Shown: positions 1 through 50,654, counted from the stretch's first letter. The stretch: DNA of 64,000 nt from Alphaproteobacteria bacterium (GCA_965214495.1 OZ243958.1:1301989-1365988), one strand, 5' to 3'. Numbers and translations are program-made. Notes: a model not told the origin generated them from the letters alone.

Positions 1-3000
1 CCGGCCTCATTGAAGGTCCGCCGTGAGGCGCGCGTTGGCCGAGGCCTATCAGGGTTTCCGGGGCGTTATTGCCCCGGCCTCATTGAAGGCAACGCAAGGA
101 GACAGAAATGGTCCAGCAGCCCTACGGTTTCCGGGGCGTTATTGCCCCGGCCTCATTGAAGGCGGACATGCTCCCGGCCCGCGGGGGCGCCAACCGCTGG
201 GTTTCCGGGGCGTTATTGCCCCGGCCTCATTGAAGGCGATTCGTCGCTGGCGTGCAGCCCGTCCACGGCGCGGTTTCCGGGGCGTTATTGCCCCGGCCTC
301 ATTGAAGGACGGCAGTAGGCCCCCCCGTCCCGGTGGACGCGGAAGGTTTCCGGGGCGTTATTGCCCCGGCCTCATTGAAGGTTCAATCCGCGCTGGCGCT
401 ACGACCCGGTTTACCGCGGTTTCCGGGGCGTTATTGCCCCGGCCTCATTGAAGGCTCAAACGCCCGTTGTTATCAACGCCTTGCACGAACGGTTTCCGGG
501 GCGTTATTGCCCCGGCCTCATTGAAGGCTCGGCTACACCGATGCTTTGGCCGATGCAGACCGGGTTTCCGGGGCGTTATTGCCCCGGCCTCATTGAAGGC
601 AGGGCGTAATAGATCTGGCGGGGGCTGCTGATCACTTGGTTTCCGGGGCGTTATTGCCCCGGCCTCATTGAAGGCGTTCATGCTCGGGCGCATGTGGTAT
701 CGCCGCGTGGGTTTCCGGGGCGTTATTGCCCCGGCCTCATTGAAGGGAGCCGCGGACCCCACACACAGACATGCCAGTGCGGCGGTTTCCGGGGCGTTAT
801 TGCCCCGGCCTCATTGAAGGTCCTTCCTCTCACCCTCGCCGACTTCCCTATGCAGAGGTTTCCGGGGCGTTATTGCCCCGGCCTCATTGAAGGATCTTCT
901 CCCAGTCCACCTCGATGATCTCGGGCTGGGGTTTCCGGGGCGTTATTGCCCCGGCCTCATTGAAGGCATGGTCTGAGCAAGCATGCTAGAACCATCCTAC
1001 TGCGGTTTCCGGGGCGTTATTGCCCCGGCCTCATTGAAGGTGCCGCCAGGACCGCATCCACAGGATCCGCCGCTCCGGTTTCCGGGGCGTTATTGCCCCG
1101 GCCTCATTGAAGGCCTGCTGGATGTTCGACGCGGCTACCGGCATCCGCGAGGGTTTCCGGGGCGTTATTGCCCCGGCCTCATTGAAGGCTGGCAGCGCCA
1201 AGGCCGGGATCGCCGCGCGCCGCGAGGTTTCCGGGGCGTTATTGCCCCGGCCTCATTGAAGGTTCGCCCTCGACGACCAGGACCGTCCGCTCCGGCTGCG
1301 GGTTTCCGGGGCGTTATTGCCCCGGCCTCATTGAAGGGAGTTCTCGCGGCGTTTCATCGCCATGTCCATGCGCCGGTTTCCGGGGCGTTATTGCCCCGGC
1401 CTCATTGAAGGAGCGCGTAATAGATCTGGCGGGGGCTGCTGGTCATTGGTTTCCGGGGCGTTATTGCCCCGGCCTCATTGAAGCTGGTCCCAGACCACGG
1501 GGCGGCGGATGGCATAGGTGTTTCCGGGGCGTTATTGCCCCGGCCTCATTGAAGCGTCGAATTGTCCATGCGCCCGAATTATGCCGTGTGACGTTTCCGG
1601 GGCGTTATTGCCCCGGCCTCATTGAAGCCCCGGCGGCTCGGTGGTGGCCGCCGCTGGTAAGGAGGGTTTCCAGGGCGTTATTGCCCCGGCCTCATTGAAG
1701 CACCGCCGGTCCCATTTTTTTACCCCCCCCCTGCCGAGGTTTCCGGGGCGTTATTGCCCCGGCCTCATTGAAGCGTAGCCGTCTAGACGCTTTTGGGCGG
1801 GTCGGCTGGCGTTTCCGGGGCGTTATTGCCCCGGCCTCATTGAAGCCCGGTCTCGGCCCAGTCCTCGACCCCCGCCGTCACGCGCGGTTTCCGGGGCGTT
1901 ATTGCCCCGGCCTCATTGAAGCCGGCATGGCTAGAGACACAGACGCCAATCGCATCCAGGTTTCCGGGGCGTTATTGCCCCGGCCTCATTGAAGCGAATT
2001 GACGCGGCGGCGGCTGGCTCTGGCCCACATGGTTTCCGGGGCGTTATTGCCCCGGCCTCATTGAAGCGTGCTGATCCCAGGACCGCATATAGAGGATCCG
2101 GCGCTGTTTCCGGGGCGTTATTGCCCCGGCCTCATTGAAGCACGGCGCGGTGTTCCTCGCCGGGCCGGACCTGGATGCGTTTCCGGGGCGTTATTGCCCC
2201 GGCCTCATTGAAGCCGATCCCGGCGCTGAGGCGTCTACGGGACAGTCGGCGTTTCCGGGGCGTTATTGCCCCGGCCTCATTGAAGCTCGGCAAATCCGGC
2301 GGGGCTGGTGCCCGTTCAGGCCGGTTTCCGGGGCGTTATTGCCCCGGCCTCATTGAAGCGGCGAGACGCAAACCGCCGGATAGCTGACGAGCGCGCCGTT
2401 TCCGGGGCGTTATTGCCCCGGCCTCATTGAAGCGGCATCGCTACGGCGTCGGGCTGACGCCGGCCGATGGTTTCCGGGGCGTTATTGCCCCGGCCTCATT
2501 GAAGCTTGTGCCCCGGCATTTCCATCAGGTCTTGGACCGCGGGTTTCCGGGGCGTTATTGCCCCGGCCTCATTGAAGCAACTCGGTCATGGCTTCGGTGG
2601 ACGACGGGCAGTTGGTTTCCGGGGCGTTATTGCCCCGGCCTCATTGAAGCTTGAGCGTCGTGAGCGGGCGCGGCGCGAACGGCATGGTTTCCGGGGCGTT
2701 ATTGCCCCGGCCTCATTGAAGCCTGATGCGCCCCCAGCCCGTCATCCCGCATCGCATCGTTTCCGGGGCGTTATTGCCCCGGCCTCATTGAAGCTTTCGC
2801 CCTCCGAGGCACTTTTTTTCAGCCGCCCCCGCGTTTCCGGGGCGTTATTGCCCCGGCCTCATTGAAGCAGTCGCCTCGATCAGAGCGCCCCCCGGGCCCA
2901 CCGTCGTTTCCGGGGCGTTATTGCCCCGGCCTCATTGAAGCTCGGCGCGGTTGGCGGCGAGTGTCTGGCGGCTGGCGGTGTTTCCGGGGCGTTATTGCCC

Positions 3001-4434
3001 CGGCCTCATTGAAGCGGACCGAGGAGGTGGACGATGCGGTCGGTTGCGAGCTGGTTTCCGGGGCGTTATTGCCCCGGCCTCATTGAAGCCCGACGGACGG
3101 CGTGTGTTTCGGTCAGTCCTTGACGTGTTTCCGGGGCGTTATTGCCCCGGCCTCATTGAAGCTCGAGGCAACGTGTGGTTGTTCAATCGACCCGCCGCGT
3201 TTCCGGGGCGTTATTGCCCCGGCCTCATTGAAGCCCATTGTCGCGTGAATGCCGTCAACACTGTCCGCAGGTTTCCGGGGCGTTATTGCCCCGGCCTCAT
3301 TGAAGCTCCTGTGTTGGGGGCGGCGGCCGCCACCGCCGCCCCGTTTCCGGGGCGTTATTGCCCCGGCCTCATTGAAGCAGATCCACGGCGACTATGTCGC
3401 GCTGCGCTATCGGTCGTTTCCGGGGCGTTATTGCCCCGGCCTCATTGAAGCTCGCTCCACCCGCTCGGCAGTTGCGCCATGAAATCCGGGTTTCCGGGGC
3501 GTTATTGCCCCGGCCTCATTGAAGCCGCGCTACATTCGGCTCGGACGATGACATTGCGGCGGAGTTTCCGGGGCGTTATTGCCCCGGCCTCATTGAAGCC
3601 GAGATCGGCTCCGCGCTGCCGCTGTCCACCGCCGATAGTTTCCGGGGCGTTATTGCCCCGGCCTCATTGAAGCGCGATGACAACTGGCATGACGGCGCCA
3701 TCATAGCCGAGTTTCCGGGGCGTTATTGCCCCGGCCTCATTGAAGCGCGAGCGTGTCAGGCGCCGTATGCGGCTCCGGCACGTTTCCGGGGCGTTATTGC
3801 CCCGGCCTCATTGAAGCCCTGCGCCCGGCTGCATCGCTGCCGGTTTCCACAAGGTTTCCGGGGCGTTATTGCCCCGGCCTCATTGAAGCGTCGGGTTGCT
3901 TAATGCGCCGGGCAAACTGGATTGGCGTTTCCGGGGCGTTATTGCCCCGGCCTCATTGAAGCTGCCTCACGCCCGACCGCTCGATCACCTCGTCGGAGAG
4001 TTTCCGGGGCGTTATTGCCCCGGCCTCATTGAAGCTAGGCGGCGCTGCGGAAGGCGGTCTGCGCATCCCACAGTTTCCGGGGCGTTATTGCCCCGGCCTC
4101 ATTGAAGCTCGATCAGGTGCATGGCGTAGGCGATCTGGCGAGGGGTTTCCGGGGCGTTATTGCCCCGGCCTCATTGAAGCGCGCCGGATGTCCGCACTGC
4201 CGCCCTGTCGCTCCCGGTTTCCGGGGCGTTATTGCCCCGGCCTCATTGAAGCCAGCGCGGCCCCCGTCGGGATACGCGCCCGGAGCGTCGTTTCCGGGGC
4301 GTTATTGCCCCGGCCTCATTGAAGCAGATTTGGACGGACCGTTTCAACGGTTCCGTCGTCAGTTTCCGGGGCGTTATTGCCCCGGCCTCATTGAAGCTAA
4401 TACAGACCTACGGCATCCCCCCCAGAGAAGCTAG
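1..4434 (+). CRISPR. CRISPR array, distal part (~60 repeats). Repeat is GTTTCCGGGGCGTTATTGCCCCGGCCTCATTGAAG plus a terminal G (units 1-20) or C (units 21-60). Spacers are 36-38 nt. The array continues upstream of the window.
   Basis: Exact 35/36-nt repeat recurs with ~73-74 bp period from base 1 (window starts mid-repeat) to 4397. It contains an internal palindrome CCGGGGC/GCCCCGG and a 3' ATTGAAG handle typical of type I/III repeats. Spacers are unique, bar two near-duplicate pairs. The last spacer (4398-4434) is complete at 37 nt and abuts an IS inverted repeat. Degenerate repeats sit only at the IS side (see 7895-8110), so the leader lies upstream of position 1. Confidence 0.95.
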
Positions 4435-5113
4435 CCCGGATATCTCACGGTGTGTAGTGCATCGGCCTCTGTGATCTGATAAAGTCGTTGTTGACCAATG
4501 ACTTGCCAGATCGGGAGCAGAGGACCGATGCAGACGGAGTGTATCAGCAAGCAGTTTGAGTTTGAAGGCTTTGGGAAGCGCCGGGTTGTTGCCGGGTTTG
4601 ACGGCGGTGCGCTGACGACCAACGCGGGTGCGCTACTGCTTCGCCGGACCGATCGGGCGATCGGCCTGTTCGAGCGGGTGGCCGCTTGCTTCACCGATGC
4701 TCGGCGGTCGGACCTTGTAGTCCATGACCTGCGGGCCTTGATCGGCCAGCGCATCGGCGCGATTGCCCTGGGTCATGAGGATGTGGCGGACCACGACGAG
4801 CTTCGCCACGATCCGGTGTTGGCGCTTCTGTCGGATCACTGTGAGCCGAAGCGGCGGGACTGTGCGGTGCTGGCGGGCAAGAGCACGCTGAACCGGTTGG
4901 AGCATGCATTTGGGGATAAGCCCGGGCGTTACCATCGGATCGGCCACGATGCCGGCGCGCTCGAGGATTTGTTGGTGACGCTGTTTCTGGAGGCTCACGA
5001 GGGGCCCGAGAAGCGCATCGTGCTGGACCTGGACGCCACTGACGATCCGCTGCACGGGGATCAGGAGGGCCGGTTTTTCCACGGCTATTACAAGTGCTAT
5101 TGCTATCTGCCGC
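4435..5113 (+). mobile_element. IS1380-family IS, left part. It holds IRL CCCGGATATCTCAC and the transposase N-terminal 205 codons (4498-5113), interrupted by an IS4 insertion.
   Basis: ORF 4498-5130 matches the IS1380-family transposase N-terminus (QTECIS..FEFEGFG..., ending HGYYKCYCYLP). The reading frame continues exactly in the minus-strand fragment at 9123->8336 (LP|LYIFCGRHLLASRLRPANIDA...). The 7-bp CTGCCGC is present at 5107-5113 and, reverse-complemented, at 9124-9130, as an IS4 target duplication. The 4-bp CTAG at 4431-4434 and 8111-8114 flanks the inverted-repeat pair. The reconstructed length is ~1688 bp, typical for IS1380. Confidence 0.88.
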
Positions 5114-6428
5114 CACTGCTGTCCGGTTAACTGATCGTACGGGTTTCTGAACGTCAAGTTTTCTGCGGGTTTGGGGCGGAGAACGGGTGGTGTCGATTTG
5201 AATGCGATGGGGCACTTTGCGGTATTTTTCCGCGGAGGCTCCCATGAACGCCGGCAGGCTCCTGTTCGCCCAGCTGATGGATTATGTGCGGTGGACGACG
5301 TTTGCCCGGATCGTCGCCCGTTACGATGGCGACCGCCGGGTCCGGAGGCTCAGCTGCGCCGAGCGATACCGGGCCATGGCCTTCGCCCAACTGACTTGGC
5401 GCGAGAGCCTGCGCGACATCGAGACCTGCCTTTCGGTCCACGCCGCGAAGCTCTATCGCATGGGGTTCCGTCAGCCGGTCCGGCGCTCGACCCTGGCCGA
5501 TGCCAACGAGGGTCGCGACTGGCGCATCCATGCCGAGCTGGCTCAGCGGCTGATCGTCCGGGCGCGGAAGCTGTATGCCGACGAGGGGCTGGGGCTGGAA
5601 CTGACCAACACCGTTTACGCGCTGGACGCGACGATTATCGACCTGTGCCTGTCGGTCTTCCCGTGGGCGCGCTTCCGCACCGCCAAGGCGGCGGTCAAGA
5701 TGCACACCCTGCTCGATCTGCGGGGCAGCATTCCGAGCTTCATCCACATCTCGGACGGCAAGCTGCATGGCGTCCATGCCCTCGACCTTCTCCTGCCCGA
5801 GGCTGGAGCCATCTACGTCATGGATCGCGCCTATGTCGACTTCGCCCGCCTCCATGCCCTGCATCTGGCCGGGGCCTTCTTCGTCACTCGCGCCAAGTCG
5901 AACATGAACGCCCATCGGGTCTACTCGGCGCCGGCGGACCGTGCGGGCGGCATCGTCTGCGACCAGACCATCTCGCTCGACGGCGACCTCACCAGCCGGA
6001 ACTACCCCGAACATCTGCGCCGCATCCGCTTCAAGGATCCCGAGACCGCCAGGACGCTGGTGTTCATCACCAACAACTTCACACTGGCGGCGCCGACCGT
6101 CTGTGCGCTCTACAAGAGCCGCTGGCAGGTCGAGTTGTTCTTCAAGTGGATCAAGCAGCATCTTCGCATCAAGCGATTCTACGGCACTTCGGAGAACGCC
6201 GTGAAGACGCAGATCTGGATCGCCGTCTCGGTCTACGTCCTCGTCGCCATCGCCAAGAAGCGGCTCCACCTCGACGCCTCGCTCTACACTTTGCTGCAGA
6301 TCCTCTCGGTCTCCTTGTTCGAAAAAATGCCTCTGTCTCAAGCACTTGCCGGAAGCCAATACAGTTGCAACCAGACGGAAATAACTAACCAACTGAATCT
6401 ATTCACTTTTTAACCGGACACTAATGAT
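5114..6428 (+). mobile_element. IS4-family insertion sequence, copy A (1315 bp)
   Basis: It is identical to the copy at 9131-10445, giving identical 403-aa transposases. Termini are CACTGCTGTCCGGTTAA… and …TTAACCGGACACTAATGAT (imperfect inverted repeat, core GTCCGGTTAA). It is flanked on the left by CTGCCGC. Confidence 0.9.
5202..6413 (+). CDS. IS4-family DDE transposase (DUF4372 N-terminal domain plus DDE_Tnp_1), 403 aa
   Basis: A full-length ORF with a characteristic IS4-family sequence. It is duplicated identically at 9146-10357(-). The overlapping antisense ORFs (412/405 aa) are GC-driven artefacts. Confidence 0.9.
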   Translation: MRWGTLRYFSAEAPMNAGRLLFAQLMDYVRWTTFARIVARYDGDRRVRRLSCAERYRAMAFAQLTWRESLRDIETCLSVHAAKLYRMGFRQPVRRSTLADANEGRDWRIHAELAQRLIVRARKLYADEGLGLELTNTVYALDATIIDLCLSVFPWARFRTAKAAVKMHTLLDLRGSIPSFIHISDGKLHGVHALDLLLPEAGAIYVMDRAYVDFARLHALHLAGAFFVTRAKSNMNAHRVYSAPADRAGGIVCDQTISLDGDLTSRNYPEHLRRIRFKDPETARTLVFITNNFTLAAPTVCALYKSRWQVELFFKWIKQHLRIKRFYGTSENAVKTQIWIAVSVYVLVAIAKKRLHLDASLYTLLQILSVSLFEKMPLSQALAGSQYSCNQTEITNQLNLFTF

Positions 6429-6699
6429 CCAACCTGGTTTATCTATCGCTTCTATGGATCGGCGCGCTGTTCGCGTTTCTGGAACACAGGAGGCTTGCAC
6501 GACATCGAATGGCGTCGTGAACGGCGGTGGGACGGGTGCTGAAACCGCTGTTTTCGCGATAGGCGCTGTCGGTGACGGCTCTGGGATCGCACGTTCGAGG
6601 ACTCCGCACGCCCGGAGGAGAAATTGCGCTGGAGTTTCGGACTTCGACCGACATTGAGGGGAACAGGAAACGAAAACTGCTTATACCGGGCGCGGGTCA

Positions 6700-7892
6700 T
6701 ATTGACTCATGTTTCGATATATTGTGGCGCGCGTGTGTGTATGGTCCATATAGTGTGTCTGTGGTTTTGACATGACCGGAGAGTAAGGATGGGTGCGGCA
6801 ACACCGATAACTCGTGAGGATCACACGGCGGATGAACTCTATGATTTGGCGCGGGGGTGCGGGGATGCGAAGCAGGCGTCTCGTGCGCGAGCGATAGCGA
6901 TGATCATGGAGGGGTTCTCGCGGTCGGAGGCGGGTCGGTCGCAAGGCATGGAGCTTCAAATTCTGCGCGATTGGGTAGTGCGCTACAACGCTGAGGGGTT
7001 TGAGGGTCTTGCGGACCGGGCGCGGGGCGGTAGCACGGGGCGGTTGACGGAAGCGCAAATCGCCGAGATCGGCGGGTGGATGGAGGCGGGTCCGGACCTT
7101 GAGCGGGACGGCGTGACGCGCTGGCGCGTTCGGGACATCGTGCGGAAGATCGAGGAGGCCTTCGGAGTGATCTATACGGAGAGCGGCGCCCGTATGATGC
7201 TCCGAAGGTCGGGGTTTTGTTTTGTTTCGGGGCGACCGCTCCACCCCAACGCCGACCCGGCGCGGCAGCGGGCGTTCGTGGCGTCGTTCGAAGCGCGGTT
7301 GAGGTTGGCGCTCAGTCCGTCGGCGCTGGCGGGACCGATCGAGGTCTGGTTTCAGGACGAGGCGCGCGTCGGGCAGGGGGGGATGACGACGCGGGTGTGG
7401 GCGCGTGGCAAGCAGCGTCCCCGGATCGTGCGCGACCATCGCTACGGCTATGTCTATCTGTTCGGGGCTGCGTGCGCGGCGCGGGGCGTTGGCGTCGCGC
7501 ATGTGGCGGACACGGCGTCGATGAACGCGCATCTGGCGGCCATCGGGGCGGCGGTGATGCCGGGTGCGCATGGGGTGATCGTCCTCGACGGCGCGGGCTG
7601 GCATCGCTCGAACGATCTGGTCGTTCCTCGCAACCTGACGCTCGTGCATCTGCCACCCTACAGCCCGGAACTCAACCCGATGGAGCAGATCGTTCTGTTT
7701 CTGAAATCGAACCGCTTTGCCAACCGCGTGTTCAAGGATGCCGCCGCCTTGAAGGAGGCGTGTCGGACAGCATGGCGATGGCTGACCGACCAGCCCAGCG
7801 TCATCACCACCATGACACATCGCAACTGGGCCACCGCTCCATCCCGCTAATCCCAAACCCTAACCGCATCAGTTCGTTTGAATTACGGTTGG
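6700..7892 (+). mobile_element. IS630-family element. The right end is firm, at the TA at 7893-7894. The left boundary is not identified.
   Basis: It contains an intact IS630/Tc1-mariner type transposase. The right terminus …ACGGTTGG|TA lies inside a CRISPR repeat (cgtTAttgcc), and TA is the IS630 target. No matching left inverted repeat or left half of the repeat was found between 6429 and 6790, so the left boundary is approximate. Confidence 0.6.
6789..7850 (+). CDS. IS630-family transposase (HTH plus DDE_3), 353 aa
   Basis: It has the DDE_3 motif …LPPYSPELNPMEQIV… and N-terminal winged-HTH. An RBS GGAGAGTAAGG sits upstream. Confidence 0.85.
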   Translation: MGAATPITREDHTADELYDLARGCGDAKQASRARAIAMIMEGFSRSEAGRSQGMELQILRDWVVRYNAEGFEGLADRARGGSTGRLTEAQIAEIGGWMEAGPDLERDGVTRWRVRDIVRKIEEAFGVIYTESGARMMLRRSGFCFVSGRPLHPNADPARQRAFVASFEARLRLALSPSALAGPIEVWFQDEARVGQGGMTTRVWARGKQRPRIVRDHRYGYVYLFGAACAARGVGVAHVADTASMNAHLAAIGAAVMPGAHGVIVLDGAGWHRSNDLVVPRNLTLVHLPPYSPELNPMEQIVLFLKSNRFANRVFKDAAALKEACRTAWRWLTDQPSVITTMTHRNWATAPSR

Positions 7893-7894
7893 TA

Positions 7895-8110
7895 TAACGC
7901 CCCGGAAGGGTGGACGGCGCGGCGCTGGTGATTCCCGCATCTCTGGCTTCAATGAGGTCGGGGCAATAACGCCCCGGAAGGGCCCTGAACAGGCGGCGCG
8001 CGACGCCCCATAGTCCCCGCTTCAATGAGGCCGGGGCAATAACGCCCCGGAAACCCAAGGCCGAGGCCGAAGCCGCTTCAATGAGGCCGGGGCAATAACG
8101 CCCCGGAAAC
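7895..8110 (-). CRISPR. Detached CRISPR trailer mini-array. Read on the minus strand it has 2 intact C-type repeats, 1 degenerate repeat (CCCTTCC...GACCTC...) and 1 partial repeat cut by IS630.
   Basis: The reverse complement of 8075-8110 and 8020-8054 equals the array repeat. The repeat at 7943-7978 has 3 substitutions. The partial repeat at 7895-7910 ends at a TA next to the IS630 end. Spacers are 20-39 nt. Immediately next to it is IS1380 IRR plus CTAG (8111-8128), matching the IRL junction at 4431-4448. Confidence 0.9.
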
Positions 8111-8114
8111 CTAG

Positions 8115-9130
8115 CCCGGATATCTCACAGGGGCGCGCGATGAGACGCTTTGTGTGTTGTTTGGGTGCGACGGGCTGGGCGCGGGAGCGCACTGTGGCGT
8201 TGTTGTGTTTGGTTGGGTGCCGTTTTGGTGTTTGGGCGCCGCTTATGCCGATTTTCTTGTTATATTCTCAAGATGAACGCAGCCGTCATCGCCCGGCGCT
8301 GGCGCCGGCATGTCAAGGTCACGTGGTGGGACGGTTCAGCGCGATAATCGTCGGTGTGCCTGGGCGAACTCGGTTCGGTAGGGGTGGTTGCTGGCCATGG
8401 AGACGAGAATGCGCCGTGCGCTGCGCCGGACCTGAGCGCCGAGCTTGAGCAGTTTCAAACGAATGGCGCCGCAAGTGGCGTTCTCCAGCCGCGTCGCCTT
8501 CAAGCCGATGCGCCGCAGCGCACACACCAGGACGTAGGCGAAGGAGGCGAACCACAGGCGCAGTTGGTTGGCCCGCATGGTCCGGGCCGAGGTGCGGTCG
8601 GCGAACAGGTCGAGTTGGCACTCCTTGATCCGGTTCTCCATCTCGCCGCGGGCGCAGTAGAGGTCTTCGTAGAGTGTTCGCGCGTCATACCGATCCGCCG
8701 GCAACGACGTGACCACGAAGCGCGGATTGGCGCCCTTGGGGAGATGTTCGGCCTTGGCCACGATCCGGCGCGCCCGGCACCAGCTCTGCCGTGTCCGATA
8801 CACGAAGTCGGCGAACCGCCGCGCCGGCTGGCCGCTCGCCTTACAGGCGGCCTTGGCCGCGCCAAGCTCGCGCTCGATGACGGCGGCCAGCCGGCGGTTG
8901 CGGGCCAGCCCGAACAGATAGCCAACGTCATTGGCCTCGCACCAGACCATCAGGTCCTCACGGCAAAAACCGGAATCGGCCCGCAAAACGATCTCCACCT
9001 CAGGCCACCGGGCGCGGACCTGGCCAACGATCCGCGCCACCTCGTCCACCGCCCCGGCCGCCGCGTCGATGTTGGCCGGGCGCAGCCGAGACGCCAGAAG
9101 ATGACGGCCACAAAAGATGTACAGCGGCAG
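8115..9130 (-). mobile_element. IS1380-family IS, right part (transposase C-terminal ~265 codons plus IRR). It is inverted relative to the left part.
   Basis: ORF 8336-9049(-) and its upstream extension encode the IS1380 transposase C-terminal domain (…RGEMENRIKECQLDL…NHPYRTEF…). IRR GTGAGATATCCGGG (reverse complement of 8115-8128) is the inverse of IRL at 4435-4448. It abuts the right end of IS4 copy B. Confidence 0.88.
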
Positions 9131-10445
9131 ATCATTAGTGTCCGGTTAAAAAGTGAATAGATTCAGTTGGTTAGTTATTTCCGTCTGGTTGCAACTGTAT
9201 TGGCTTCCGGCAAGTGCTTGAGACAGAGGCATTTTTTCGAACAAGGAGACCGAGAGGATCTGCAGCAAAGTGTAGAGCGAGGCGTCGAGGTGGAGCCGCT
9301 TCTTGGCGATGGCGACGAGGACGTAGACCGAGACGGCGATCCAGATCTGCGTCTTCACGGCGTTCTCCGAAGTGCCGTAGAATCGCTTGATGCGAAGATG
9401 CTGCTTGATCCACTTGAAGAACAACTCGACCTGCCAGCGGCTCTTGTAGAGCGCACAGACGGTCGGCGCCGCCAGTGTGAAGTTGTTGGTGATGAACACC
9501 AGCGTCCTGGCGGTCTCGGGATCCTTGAAGCGGATGCGGCGCAGATGTTCGGGGTAGTTCCGGCTGGTGAGGTCGCCGTCGAGCGAGATGGTCTGGTCGC
9601 AGACGATGCCGCCCGCACGGTCCGCCGGCGCCGAGTAGACCCGATGGGCGTTCATGTTCGACTTGGCGCGAGTGACGAAGAAGGCCCCGGCCAGATGCAG
9701 GGCATGGAGGCGGGCGAAGTCGACATAGGCGCGATCCATGACGTAGATGGCTCCAGCCTCGGGCAGGAGAAGGTCGAGGGCATGGACGCCATGCAGCTTG
9801 CCGTCCGAGATGTGGATGAAGCTCGGAATGCTGCCCCGCAGATCGAGCAGGGTGTGCATCTTGACCGCCGCCTTGGCGGTGCGGAAGCGCGCCCACGGGA
9901 AGACCGACAGGCACAGGTCGATAATCGTCGCGTCCAGCGCGTAAACGGTGTTGGTCAGTTCCAGCCCCAGCCCCTCGTCGGCATACAGCTTCCGCGCCCG
10001 GACGATCAGCCGCTGAGCCAGCTCGGCATGGATGCGCCAGTCGCGACCCTCGTTGGCATCGGCCAGGGTCGAGCGCCGGACCGGCTGACGGAACCCCATG
10101 CGATAGAGCTTCGCGGCGTGGACCGAAAGGCAGGTCTCGATGTCGCGCAGGCTCTCGCGCCAAGTCAGTTGGGCGAAGGCCATGGCCCGGTATCGCTCGG
10201 CGCAGCTGAGCCTCCGGACCCGGCGGTCGCCATCGTAACGGGCGACGATCCGGGCAAACGTCGTCCACCGCACATAATCCATCAGCTGGGCGAACAGGAG
10301 CCTGCCGGCGTTCATGGGAGCCTCCGCGGAAAAATACCGCAAAGTGCCCCATCGCATTCAAATCGACACCACCCGTTCTCCGCCCCAAACCCGCAGAAAA
10401 CTTGACGTTCAGAAACCCGTACGATCAGTTAACCGGACAGCAGTG
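9131..10445 (-). mobile_element. IS4-family insertion sequence, copy B. It is identical to copy A and inverted.
   Basis: It is the reverse complement of copy A over its full length. Its right end abuts the IS1380 C-terminal part with the CTGCCGC duplication (9124-9130). Confidence 0.9.
9146..10357 (-). CDS. IS4-family DDE transposase, 403 aa (copy B)
   Basis: Its translation is identical to the ORF at 5202-6413. Confidence 0.9.
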   Translation of the reverse strand: MRWGTLRYFSAEAPMNAGRLLFAQLMDYVRWTTFARIVARYDGDRRVRRLSCAERYRAMAFAQLTWRESLRDIETCLSVHAAKLYRMGFRQPVRRSTLADANEGRDWRIHAELAQRLIVRARKLYADEGLGLELTNTVYALDATIIDLCLSVFPWARFRTAKAAVKMHTLLDLRGSIPSFIHISDGKLHGVHALDLLLPEAGAIYVMDRAYVDFARLHALHLAGAFFVTRAKSNMNAHRVYSAPADRAGGIVCDQTISLDGDLTSRNYPEHLRRIRFKDPETARTLVFITNNFTLAAPTVCALYKSRWQVELFFKWIKQHLRIKRFYGTSENAVKTQIWIAVSVYVLVAIAKKRLHLDASLYTLLQILSVSLFEKMPLSQALAGSQYSCNQTEITNQLNLFTF

Positions 10446-10647
10446 CACATCGATGTAAAACAACAAGCATTCGAGAGAAACCACAAAGCCGCCGAACGCC
10501 GCCGTAAGGACGTGAGCAGTTTTCATTTCCCGTTCTCTCCGACATTCGCCGGAGCCGAGAACCCCGCGCAACGTAAGCGGTGGAAGGGCTCGACAACCGC
10601 GCCGCGCTCGTCCCCGCCGACGAACGGCGGGTGGCGCGCCAGGTCGG

Positions 10648-11552
10648 TCATGACCCGGATAGCCGCTCGACTGCGGCCGCGTAGAACTTGGGAACGATCT
10701 CGGCGCCGCGGTAGCGCCTGCCTGAACGGCGGCAAACGACTGCGCCCGGACACAGGCCGCCGAAAGGCTCCCACACGGCATCGCCCTCGTCGGTCGAGAA
10801 GCGAACGATCAGGTCGATGAATGTGGGGGCTTTTGGCTCCCGTGCAGGCTCCTGAACTTGTATTTCATGCGCTCGCGCGCGCCCCGGATACGCTCCGCCC
10901 CTCCGACCTGCGGCGCGCGCCAGACGTTCGTCACGCCGATTGCGCAACGGAACTTCGCGCGAAGCCGCGCCCACACGCCCGCGGAAAGCGGTTGCGCGCC
11001 ATCCACGCTGAAATACGGGCGGCCCGCCGGATCGCCATGCGCGTTGGCGCAGCGCGCCATCTTCTCGAAGGCTTCCGGGGGCGGGTAATACTAGAGATGA
11101 TCGTCGGTCAGTTATTTCCGTGTCGCCGCATTGCGCACGCCGCGGGCTTCGTTCGCCAACCGGAACGGAAGGCCCGACCGCTTCCATTCGTGGCGAAGCC
11201 AGTCCTTCATCGACAACGTCCGACCATCAGCCCGGAATTCGGCGCTCCTCACATAATGCGCGCAGACTTCGGTGACGACGGGAAATTTGCGCAGGGTTCG
11301 GCTACTCGTGTCTCCGGCGACATGCCCCATTCCCTTGTCCCATATGTTGCAGCATCGGTATTCCCAGCCGTTCGCCGCCAGCGTCGGATGCACGGTGGCC
11401 CATCCCAGTTCCGTATTCCAGAACCATAGCGTCGTCTCCGGCGTGGCGCGTTCGGACCAGGCCCGAACGTGCGGCTCATACCATTGCGCGAGCCCTGCGG
11501 CCTCGTGGCCGTCCCCCGGAAAGCCGCCGCCCCCGTAAGGACCGTCGGACAC
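10648..11552 (-). pseudogene. N6/N4 DNA methyltransferase remnant (PF01555-like), frameshifted and N-terminally truncated
   Basis: Two overlapping minus-strand ORFs, 11112-11552 and 10648-11187, sit in different frames. They carry …SDGPYGG…CNIWDKGMG… and …EPFGGLCPGAVV..RRSGRRYRGAEIVPKFYAAAVERL… (compare DPFxGSGTT…LGRRyIGIE…Y). No single intact frame exists. Confidence 0.55.
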
Positions 11553-47963: not shown

Positions 47964-50654
47964 TCAGAATCGGAGCCGCCAACCCGCCAGCAGGCCGAGC
48001 GAGGGCTCCGCGTCCACATGCCCCGGATGACGCGAAACATATGCCTCCGTCCGGGCCTCTCCGCCGAGCACGCCCGTCCGGCGCCAGCGCACCGCCAGAT
48101 CGACCTGTCTGCCCGACGGGACGAGATCGGCCAGGACCGACTCGTGCAGGACCGCGCCGTCCCTGGTGCGGCCGACCGGCAGCATGAGGCTCGCCCGCCC
48201 GTGTTCCAGCCGCGGCGGCTGAGACAGCGAGACCGTGATCTTGTCGTCGGCGGTCAGGCGTCGGTCGGCGCGGAGCGAAACCGCGCTCGTGGTCAGGCCC
48301 GACAGTTCGGCGACAACGCCGGCGCCGGCGCCGGGCGCGACCAGACCGATCTCGGCGTCGGCGGCGAGGCGCCACCTCGCGAAGCCGGCGCCGGCCTCGA
48401 GCCCGGCGACAAAGCTGTCCGCCGAGAGCCGGCCGAACGCGCCGTCGGCCGCAGAGCCCAGCATGGCTTCCTGCTCGCTGATCCAGCCGAGGCGCACGCC
48501 GAACCACCCACCCGGCGGCCGCCAGGCCAGCACGGCGCCTGTTTCCGGCGTCTGCTGTTGGAGCATGCCCGCAGTGGTGAACGCCGTCGCCTCGAGGCCG
48601 TTCTGCGCCCTGAAGGTAAGCGTTGCGGCGTTCTCGGCCAGGTTGAGCAGGCTGCTCTCCGCGTTCGCCGGCGACTCGTGGAAACCCAGGCGCCACCGGC
48701 CCCGATCGACGGCGATACCGCTCCGGCCGAACGCCAGCCGCGTGCGGCCCGGCGCCGAAGCGCCCGCGTCCGGTCCCGGAGCCATGAGATCGCGCAGCCG
48801 CGCCATCGTCGACAGACCGCTCGCCACCCTGACGAGGTCTGAAAGATCGTACCAGAACGGCGCCCCCAGCGCGTCGAACGCGGCGATCTCGCGCCCGGCC
48901 AGGGAGCGCGAAAGCCCGTCGCCGAGCGCGCCGCTCAGAAGGACACGGGTGACGCGCACGCTGTGGCCGGCGTCGCCGACGCGGAATCCGGTCGTAATCG
49001 TTGTCTCGCCCACCGGCCAGACCGCGGCGCCGAGGTCCATCAGCCCCTGGCCGTAAGTCGCCGTATCGGCATAGACGCCGGACTTGTTCGCGGTCGCGTA
49101 GAGCCGCGCAACCAGGTCCGTGTTCGACAACTGGCTGCGGAACATCTGCTTCATCGGCGCCAGCCCGCCTGTGACCATCGGCGCCGCGAACGACGTTCCG
49201 CTGAACGATTCGTAGTCCCGAACGATCGCGCCCTGGCGCGGCCCGAAGTAAGCGGCGCCGATCCCCACCCCGGGGGCGGCGATACACCAGTCCGCGGCGA
49301 TGCCGCAGCGGTTGGAGAAGCGCGCGATTTCGCCGTTCTCGCCAATCGCCACCACCGCGATGGAGTGGCCCTGCAGCTCCTCGATGCGCACCGCCAGGCC
49401 GGCATACAGATTGGGCGAGCTCGCATCGAGAAGGCCGGCGGGCCGGTCCAAATAGTCCGTCTCCCCGTCGCCGACGCAGTTGTCGGTACCCGGGCGGCAG
49501 AGGTCTGTATTTGAGTTTCCGGCGGACCAGACGAGGATCGTCTTGTCGGTCCGGTCGGCCTGGGCCATGACTTCGATGGTCTGCTGCATTGCGGCGCGCA
49601 GGGCCGGCACGTCGTCGTAGTTCTCGATCAGCCCCTCGACCCCGAAGCTCTGGTTCACCATGTCCGGGCCCTGCGAGAGCACGGCCCGATAGAGGTTCGC
49701 GTCGTCCGAATCGTACACGGCGAGGATGGCGAGGTCGATCGGCGAGAACGGCACGCCCGAAACCCCGCCGCTGCCGAGGGGAATCGCCGTCATCTGGAGC
49801 GCGGCCCAGGGCGCGACTCCTGTGTGCTGATGGCTGGCTCCCGGAACCGGGTTGCCCACGATGACGCTCGCGACGGCGGTGCCGTGCGAATAGCGCATGC
49901 CGGTTTCGTCAAAGGCGCCGGTAGTGAGAGTCTCGCTGACCGCTCCGCCCCGGAACGCGGGATGAAAGAGGTCGATGCCGGTGTCGATCACGCCCACGGT
50001 GACCCCGGCGCCCGGCTTCGCGTCGGCGCCGTGGAGAATCGGGATCGCCGCATGAGCCTGGTGCGTGTTGATCGTTCTCAGACCCCATTGCCCTTGCGAT
50101 CGAAACTCGGGCGCGGCGAGGAGCTCTGCGGCGGCCTTGTCCCGGATGCTCCTGAACTCCTCGATCGAGAGGCACCCGCGGTCGACAGTGTCGACGACGC
50201 AAGGATCCGGGTCAGGATCCGGTTCCGGGGGATCTGGCGTGGGCGACGGCGGATCCGGGGGATCTGGCGGTTCCGGCGTGGGCGACGGGTTCGGAGGATC
50301 CGGCGGTTCCGGCGTGGGCGCCGGGTTCGGAGGATCCGGCGGTTCCGGCGTGGGCGCCGGGTTCGGAGGATCCGGCGGTTCCGGCGTGGGCGCCGGGTTC
50401 GGAGGATCCGGCGGTTCCGGCGTGGGCGACGGGTCCGGGGGATCTGGCAGTTCCGGCGTGGGCGACGGGTCCGGAGGATCTGGCGGTTCCGGCACGGGCG
50501 GCGGCGAGTCCGGGACTTCCGGCGTCGCGGGCGTCCCGCTCGCCGAGCCGCCTCCCGAACCGCAGCCGGACAACGCGACCGCGAGCGACAGCATCGCAGC
50601 AAACGTAAAAAATGCGCCGTATCCGAGGCTTACGGTCTGACGCTCGTATTTCAC
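47964..50654 (-). CDS. Lipoprotein subtilase (S8) autotransporter with a proline-rich repeat region (SphB1/NalP-like), 896 aa
   Basis: It has a lipobox LSGC, about 8 copies of PTPEPPDPPNPA, an S8 triad (VGVIDTGID, HGTAVASV, GTSFAAPMVTG) and a C-terminal beta-barrel translocator ending …AGWRLRF. Confidence 0.8.
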   Translation of the reverse strand: MKYERQTVSLGYGAFFTFAAMLSLAVALSGCGSGGGSASGTPATPEVPDSPPPVPEPPDPPDPSPTPELPDPPDPSPTPEPPDPPNPAPTPEPPDPPNPAPTPEPPDPPNPAPTPEPPDPPNPSPTPEPPDPPDPPSPTPDPPEPDPDPDPCVVDTVDRGCLSIEEFRSIRDKAAAELLAAPEFRSQGQWGLRTINTHQAHAAIPILHGADAKPGAGVTVGVIDTGIDLFHPAFRGGAVSETLTTGAFDETGMRYSHGTAVASVIVGNPVPGASHQHTGVAPWAALQMTAIPLGSGGVSGVPFSPIDLAILAVYDSDDANLYRAVLSQGPDMVNQSFGVEGLIENYDDVPALRAAMQQTIEVMAQADRTDKTILVWSAGNSNTDLCRPGTDNCVGDGETDYLDRPAGLLDASSPNLYAGLAVRIEELQGHSIAVVAIGENGEIARFSNRCGIAADWCIAAPGVGIGAAYFGPRQGAIVRDYESFSGTSFAAPMVTGGLAPMKQMFRSQLSNTDLVARLYATANKSGVYADTATYGQGLMDLGAAVWPVGETTITTGFRVGDAGHSVRVTRVLLSGALGDGLSRSLAGREIAAFDALGAPFWYDLSDLVRVASGLSTMARLRDLMAPGPDAGASAPGRTRLAFGRSGIAVDRGRWRLGFHESPANAESSLLNLAENAATLTFRAQNGLEATAFTTAGMLQQQTPETGAVLAWRPPGGWFGVRLGWISEQEAMLGSAADGAFGRLSADSFVAGLEAGAGFARWRLAADAEIGLVAPGAGAGVVAELSGLTTSAVSLRADRRLTADDKITVSLSQPPRLEHGRASLMLPVGRTRDGAVLHESVLADLVPSGRQVDLAVRWRRTGVLGGEARTEAYVSRHPGHVDAEPSLGLLAGWRLRF
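50200..50520 (-). repeat. 36-bp tandem repeat (~8 units), in-frame and encoding PTPEPPDPPNPA
   Basis: GGATCCGGCGGTTCCGGCGTGGGCGCCGGGTTCGGA repeats with minor variants inside the autotransporter passenger N-terminus. Confidence 0.85.

Follow-up and report, generated by a model that had tools for sequence, protein, structure and literature searches.

An inversion between two IS4-family copies separates the halves of an IS1380 element at the trailer end of an alphaproteobacterial CRISPR array

Introduction

Inversion between oppositely oriented copies of an insertion sequence (IS) is a textbook process, familiar from inverted IS pairs of the Tn10/Tn5 type and from IS-flanked chromosomal inversions. 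Inside a CRISPR array, a described case is the direct-repeat locus of Mycobacterium tuberculosis, in which insertions of IS6110 are accompanied by deletions through recombination between IS copies (PMC7708916), and where a survey of 198 isolates of the M. tuberculosis complex found neither a partial nor a global inversion (PMC7708916). Here we describe a 64,000-nucleotide (nt) stretch of DNA from an alphaproteobacterium (Alphaproteobacteria bacterium, GCA_965214495.1, OZ243958.1:1301989-1365988; hereafter the window), in which the trailer end of a chromosomal CRISPR array carries elements of the IS1380, IS4 and IS630 families, and in which a segment bounded by two identical, inverted IS4 copies has been flipped, leaving the two halves of one IS1380 element and two pieces of the array on opposite strands.

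The locus resembles that of the M. tuberculosis complex in having IS elements inside a CRISPR array, in a loss of repeat-spacer units tied to IS-IS recombination, and in IS copies without matching flanks as the marks of such events. It differs in that a segment with three repeats is inverted, and in the families involved, which are IS1380, IS4 and IS630 and not IS3. With inverted pairs of the Tn10/Tn5 type it shares identical inverted copies and an original target duplication that has been divided, one part standing at the outer end of one copy and one at the other copy's inner end, but the reciprocal duplication is missing here, and the locus does not amount to two clean insertions plus one exchange. 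The arrangement is a product of ordinary IS events affecting the trailer, which is the array's old end, and involves no new mechanism.

Results and discussion

An IS1380 element at the end of the last array spacer

The main CRISPR array (1-4434, plus strand) runs off the window's left end and was delineated by repeat search and by the Rfam family CRISPR-DR16, which its repeats match at 42.5-43.7 bits against a gathering score of 35. It contains 60 complete 36-nt repeats at 54-4397, regularly spaced, with unique spacers of 35-40 nt; three more repeats of this known family belong to the inverted trailer treated below. The final spacer, 37 nt long (4398-4434), has CTAG at its end, and no repeat comes after it. 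Directly after it begins the left part of an IS1380-family element (4435-5113, 679 bp, plus strand), with the left terminal repeat at 4435-4448 and the N-terminal half of a transposase gene starting from an ATG at 4528. The right part (8115-9132, minus strand; 1018 bp including nine duplicated base pairs) carries the right terminal repeat at 8115-8128 and the C-terminal half of the gene. CTAG is found at both outer edges, at 4431-4434 and at 8111-8114, as the left and right copies of a 4-bp target duplication, and each copy is followed by the identical 14-nt terminus CCCGGATATCTCAC, at 4435 and at 8115.

When 4435-5113 is fused with 8115-9123 in reverse complement, the result is a 1688-bp element with terminal inverted repeats matching at 14/14 positions and a single open reading frame (ORF) of 457 amino acids (aa). 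The rejoined ORF matches NF033539 at 390 bits (cutoff 180), covering model positions 3-418 of 419, and PF13701 with E = 1.8e-144; a full-length DDE transposase, terminal inverted repeats and a 4-bp target duplication together assign the element to the IS1380 family. In the window the transposase frame is interrupted at ...YCYLP|LYIFCG...; CTGCCGC stands at 5107-5113 and, as its reverse complement, at 9124-9130. Several of these features had been pointed out in the original prediction, made from the sequence alone: the 37-nt spacer ending in CTAG, the second CTAG beside the opposite inverted repeat, an IS1380-family insertion with a 4-bp duplication, and the transposase split with CTGCCGC at both breaks. 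Each was found as described.

The N-terminal fragment corresponds to a protein of 200 aa including a read-through tail (P0123), and the C-terminal ORF (8336-9049) to one of 237 aa (P0121). A protein search returned a 90% cluster, all members of which lie on one 3,261,019-bp NCBI/ENA contig. The cluster includes four intact 457-aa paralogs, all four with an uninterrupted YCYLPLYIFCG, to which the rejoined ORF aligns without gaps and with 2-7 residues different, as well as proteins of 200 and 237 aa that match the window's two fragments exactly. The genome holds at least four further IS1380 copies and one further fragment, and the nearest transposase outside the source contig has 80% amino-acid identity. 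Compared with the family as defined in ISfinder and by NF033539, the rejoined element is typical in its transposase of ~457 aa, short terminal inverted repeats, 4-bp duplication and length of 1688 bp, and is a new isoform of this known family.

Its relatives prefer CTAG/CTAA targets: those at 73% amino-acid identity (1669 bp; loci L081-L090) have a CTAG or CTAA 4-bp duplication in all six of six genomic contexts, which indicates that the clade of the window's element targets these two sequences. An insertion exactly at a spacer/repeat boundary had been predicted, and the position stands; its placement there reflects the target preference of the clade, since CTAG happened to end the 60th spacer.

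An IS4 element within the IS1380 transposase gene

The break in the transposase gene coincides with the ends of an IS4-family element that is present twice. Copy A (5114-6426, 1313 bp, plus strand) has the ends CACTGCTGTCCGGTTAA...TTAACCGGACACTAATG and a transposase gene at 5244-6413 (389 aa); copy B (9133-10445, minus strand) is 100% identical and inverted. The transposase matches NF033592 at 269 bits (cutoff 115), as well as PF01609 and PF14294, and the terminal inverted repeats, CACTGCTGTCCGGTTAA versus CATTAGTGTCCGGTTAA, agree at 14/17 positions. Boundaries were set by comparison with 88.8%-identical relatives (DNA, metagenome contigs), which are 1313 bp long. At the left end of copy A, within IS1380, stands the first copy of a 9-bp target duplication, ATCTGCCGC (5105-5113), and at the right end of copy B the second, GCGGCAGAT (9124-9132), which is its exact reverse complement; the chance of a 9-bp match is ~4e-6. 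An IS4-type DDE transposase, terminal inverted repeats and a duplication of ~9 bp are the features of this family.

Within the genome, at least one further IS4 copy (P0128) differs by two residues. ISPosp4-like elements (Polaromonas sp. JS666 plasmid, NC_007950.1) share the DUF4372 and DDE_Tnp_1 domains and the 9-bp duplication, but are distinct, being 73.5% identical in DNA to the window's IS4 over 1086 bp; the closest DNA relatives found are those on the metagenome contigs, at 88.8%. A scan of species-representative genomes for the IS4 left end gave no match, and a search of a plasmid collection gave distant IS relatives only. The element is a new isoform of a known family.

The flanks of the relatives include a 9-bp duplication at L001 (CCCCTGCAT) and an 8/9 match at L091. 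At L001 and L002 (2871-4183) one and the same IS4 relative is present, its left flank identical over 2775 nt, and only L001 has the 9-bp duplication; the right flank of L002 is a different one, without duplication, which makes it an independent flank replacement at an IS4-type right end. L092 lacks the right end of IS4, and its transposase ORF continues into IS1380-like sequence with a PF13701 match.

An inversion with end points in the IS4 copies

Because the 9-bp duplication is split across opposite ends of the two IS4 copies, and because the IS1380 halves and the pieces of the array lie on opposite strands, the segment between them must have been inverted with end points inside the IS4 copies; only such an inversion yields what is seen. 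The two copies are identical and inverted, and the duplication of one insertion is divided between them. When 6427-9132 is turned round in silico, IS1380(N), IS4 and IS1380(C) line up as one colinear composite of 3010 bp. CTAG comes next, with a repeat immediately behind it, and all repeats, including the three of the trailer, are now on the plus strand. Removal of the composite and of one CTAG restores a regular array, in which the 37-nt spacer is followed by a repeat. The insertion steps of IS1380 and IS4 and the topology of the inversion are plain from the sequence itself. The exchange was most likely homologous recombination, an interpretation based on the perfect identity of the copies and on general knowledge of IS-mediated inversions.

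The original prediction anticipated most of this. Two identical inverted IS4 copies joined to IS1380 halves on opposite strands were found, with 100% identity between 5114-6429 and 9130-10445. The check proposed with it, un-inversion in silico, produced the expected colinear composite of ~3.0 kb and brought the trailer repeats onto the strand of the main array; the two fragments form a continuous IS1380 frame, and the CTGCCGC and CTAG duplications are present. The insertion of IS4 into IS1380 is upheld, with the length corrected from 1315 to 1313 bp, the duplication from CTGCCGC to the 9-bp ATCTGCCGC, and the boundary by 2 bp. Likewise, the inversion stands with limits of 6427-9132 instead of 6429-9130, and the attribution to homologous recombination is to be read as probable.

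Proposed history and points against it

A history of IS1380 insertion, IS4 insertion and inversion between IS4 copies, with later IS events at the trailer end, is very probably the best explanation of the locus. The 1688-bp IS1380 inserted at the CTAG that ends the window's 60th spacer, duplicating CTAG, and the 1313-bp IS4 inserted into the IS1380 transposase gene at codon ~195, duplicating ATCTGCCGC. A second, identical IS4 copy came to be placed 2.7 kb off in inverted orientation, and an exchange between the two copies, with homologous recombination as its most likely cause, flipped 6427-9132. The original IS4 left end was kept with the IS1380 N-terminal half on the plus strand, and the original IS4 right end, the IS1380 C-terminal half, CTAG and the last three and a half repeats moved to the minus strand. 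IS630 inserted independently at the TA of the fourth trailer repeat, and at least two further IS-associated deletions or recombinations probably replaced one IS630 flank and one flank of the second IS4 copy.

Several observations weigh against this history. Copy A is flanked on its right by ATCCAACCT and copy B on its left by ATCGATGTG, and these share no 9-bp duplication, direct or inverted; the second copy has no split duplication of its own that would form the reciprocal pair. As a clean insertion or a one-step transposition would leave a duplication, one of its flanks was probably replaced later, through an adjacent deletion or recombination with a further copy. At IS630, the left flank is a segment of other DNA (segment Z, below) and not the rest of the repeat, the CRISPR stump is found on the right side only, and the missing 19-20 nt of the repeat that was hit are absent from the rest of the window. 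By itself, CTAG at both edges is no proof of a common insertion for the two IS1380 halves, being weak evidence in a clade that always targets CTAG or CTAA; the argument for a single insertion is carried by the 9-bp IS4 duplication and the CRISPR flanks. Finally, the un-inverted isomer is known by in-silico reconstruction only, and un-inverting does not restore the ancestral state, because the second pair of IS4 ends lacks a duplication and the CRISPR stump at IS630 is one-sided. The ordered history that had been claimed stands in its core but is reconstructable only in part, with the second IS4 end pair and the left flank of IS630 unexplained. Metagenome scans for a trailer spacer and for the repeat core gave no match.

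It is quite unlikely that the orientation of 6427-9132 is an assembly choice or reflects a population mixture, the organism carrying the un-inverted form or both. Perfect 1313-bp inverted repeats 2.7 kb apart are a classic substrate for flip-flop or mis-orientation, the IS relatives come from long-read metagenome assemblies, as the source may too, and an adjacent methyltransferase gene has frame breaks; but long reads easily span the 5.3-kb structure, there is no sign of error in the sequence at the junctions, and even with both isomers present the history of the insertions would hold, as would inversion as a genuine process.

We regard as very unlikely that a single intramolecular transposition event, into a nearby target and with inversion topology, created both the inversion and the second IS4 copy without RecA-type recombination. 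The final topology would be the same as that of insertion plus recombination, and the 100% identity of the copies would be accounted for, given that the third copy (P0128) differs by two residues; such an event should, however, leave the inverted 9-bp target beside copy A's right end and copy B's left end, where ATCCAACCT and CACATCGAT / ATCGATGTG are unrelated. Moreover, characterised IS4-family elements (Tn5/Tn10) transpose by cut-and-paste rather than replicatively.

That the two transposase fragments come from different IS1380 copies, separately hit or truncated and without any inversion, is effectively refuted: even though the genome has at least four other copies and a further fragment, and all copies of the clade would have CTAG or CTAA flanks, the end of the N-terminal half and the start of the C-terminal half have the same 9 bp, each at opposite ends of identical IS4 copies, the halves sum to a gap-free 457-aa protein, and both border the same CRISPR array, one half adjoining a full-length spacer and the other the start of a repeat.

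A composite-transposon or inside-out transposition was also considered for the IS4 pair and was rejected, there being no matching 9-bp flanks at either the outer or the inner ends.

The inverted trailer of the array

At position 36 the 19 leftmost repeats (54-1411) have G, and all later ones (1449-4397) have C, as do the inverted trailer repeats; the rightmost repeats are degenerate, and the leader is accordingly placed at the left and the trailer at the right of the array. The G variant has propagated from the leader end. The inverted trailer (7894-8110, minus strand), identified by repeat search, self-comparison and CRISPR-DR16, contains perfect repeats at 8075-8110 and 8019-8054 with a 20-nt spacer between them, a degenerate repeat with three substitutions at 7946-7981, and, at 7894-7910, the 17-nt stump of a repeat, cut off at the TA into which IS630 inserted. 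CRISPR-DR16 matches all three trailer repeats on the minus strand, two above the gathering score and one below it at 31.3 bits. The 20-nt spacer (8055-8074; GGCTTCGGCCTCGGCCTTGG in array sense) contrasts with the 35-40 nt found elsewhere and has probably undergone an internal deletion.

With the final spacer of the main array lacking a repeat behind it and three trailer spacers inverted and cut off from that array, about four of the oldest spacers probably no longer undergo normal expression or processing; at least 60 units are intact. To speak of 'CRISPR decay', as had been done, is too strong for an array that retains 60 or more perfect repeat units. Software that searches for arrays would list a spurious second mini-array, of opposite orientation, at 7946-8110. 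The locus is a clear illustration of how an IS-mediated inversion can affect a CRISPR array, and for three IS isoforms not catalogued before it gives exact boundaries, the target duplications and the target preference; its two isomers, inverted and un-inverted, could act as a strain marker. Its significance beyond annotation is little.

Within the main array, two pairs of spacers are near-duplicates: 600-638 and 1412-1448 have 27 identical nt in common, and 1041-1077 and 2068-2105 are 86% identical over 29 nt, which suggests repeated acquisition from variants of one target. A comparison of the spacers with the IS elements and with the rest of the window, as a check for self-targeting, gave no match longer than 21 nt. 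No cas genes were found in the window, where ten ORFs to the right of the array were compared with Pfam, and the leader side of the array lies beyond the window's left end.

The IS630 element and segment Z

Between copy A and the trailer lies a complete IS630-family element (6684-7894, 1211 bp, plus strand), whose transposase (6789-7850, 353 aa) matches NF033545 at 196 bits (cutoff 100). TA stands on both sides, at 6682-6683 and 7895-7896; the element's own terminal repeats are weak, and each terminus has its homologous counterpart in 15 copies of an 81%-identical relative, all from a single long-read metagenome-assembled genome. An IS630-type transposase and insertion at TA with TA duplication define its family. 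The nearest transposase outside the source contig has 82% amino-acid identity, and the genome contains further copies (P0138, P0141); the element is complete and a new isoform of a known family. Three nested IS events, with the trailer truncated by IS630, had been proposed: the nesting of IS4 in IS1380 in the array is retained, whereas IS630 is a separate, complete and adjacent element in the fourth trailer repeat.

The 257 bp that separate IS4 copy A, at its right end, from the start of IS630 on the left (segment Z, 6427-6683, 57% GC) are neither CRISPR nor IS, and neither junction of this segment fits a simple insertion. Segment Z begins with CCAACC, like the right terminus of IS630, and was considered as a left part of that element; this was rejected because the left terminus at 6684 is homologous to the 15 copies of the relative. 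As the left flank of IS630 is non-CRISPR and the missing nucleotides of the repeat are absent from the window, the distal part of the trailer must have been lost and not just interrupted. A deletion at or between IS630 copies would account for this loss. An IS630 end adjoining TA+TTGCCCCGACCTCATTGAAGC elsewhere in the genome would mark the lost partner junction.

CTAG sites in the window

In the host DNA of the window (10446-64000) CTAG is depleted about 20-fold, with 8 sites observed against 156 expected. The spacers are not depleted, with 5 sites in the array (1-4434) against 6.7 expected in 2.2 kb of spacers, and the array contributes 5 of the 13 independent CTAG sites, at a density 7.5 times that of host DNA (p = 0.002). 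Spacers originate from foreign DNA. We offer only tentatively, and consider rather unlikely, the idea that CRISPR arrays are preferred landing pads for CTAG-targeting IS1380 elements; if it were true, the spacers of a CTAG-poor genome would supply a disproportionate share of targets, and IS attack would be biased toward arrays.

Flank Y and neighbouring genes

On the far side of the inverted segment, flank Y (10446-11552, minus strand) adjoins the left end of IS4 copy B. Its first nine nucleotides (10446-10454; reverse complement ATCGATGTG) do not match segment Z. The last ~60 nt of segment Z (6623-6681) resemble 10508-10565 in flank Y, with a local alignment score of 34 against 20.4 +/- 2.4 for shuffles (maximum 30), and both similar segments end in GAAAACTGCT, the apparent start of a small ORF (MKTAHVL... 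in flank Y). After un-inversion these segments are direct repeats ~345 bp apart. This hints weakly that Z and Y may be native neighbours.

Flank Y also carries a DNA methyltransferase gene (10648-11552, minus strand), a weak CcrM-like match spread over three frames and with two in-frame stops near 11090-11115, which is a pseudogene or contains assembly errors. A possible IS4-like remnant at 11103-11130 (28 nt, 79% similar to IS4 subterminal sequence) was rejected by translation: read by eye, the minus-strand frame runs on as one frame with two in-frame stops and without signs of an inserted element.

Ten ORFs to the right of the array, compared with Pfam, gave GlnE, a class-I release factor, PBP1, an MnmA-type tRNA methyltransferase and other housekeeping-type genes, or no match. 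A 36-bp tandem repeat of 7.7 copies with 91% matches occupies 50224-50504, within an S8 subtilase ORF (47964-50654, minus strand).

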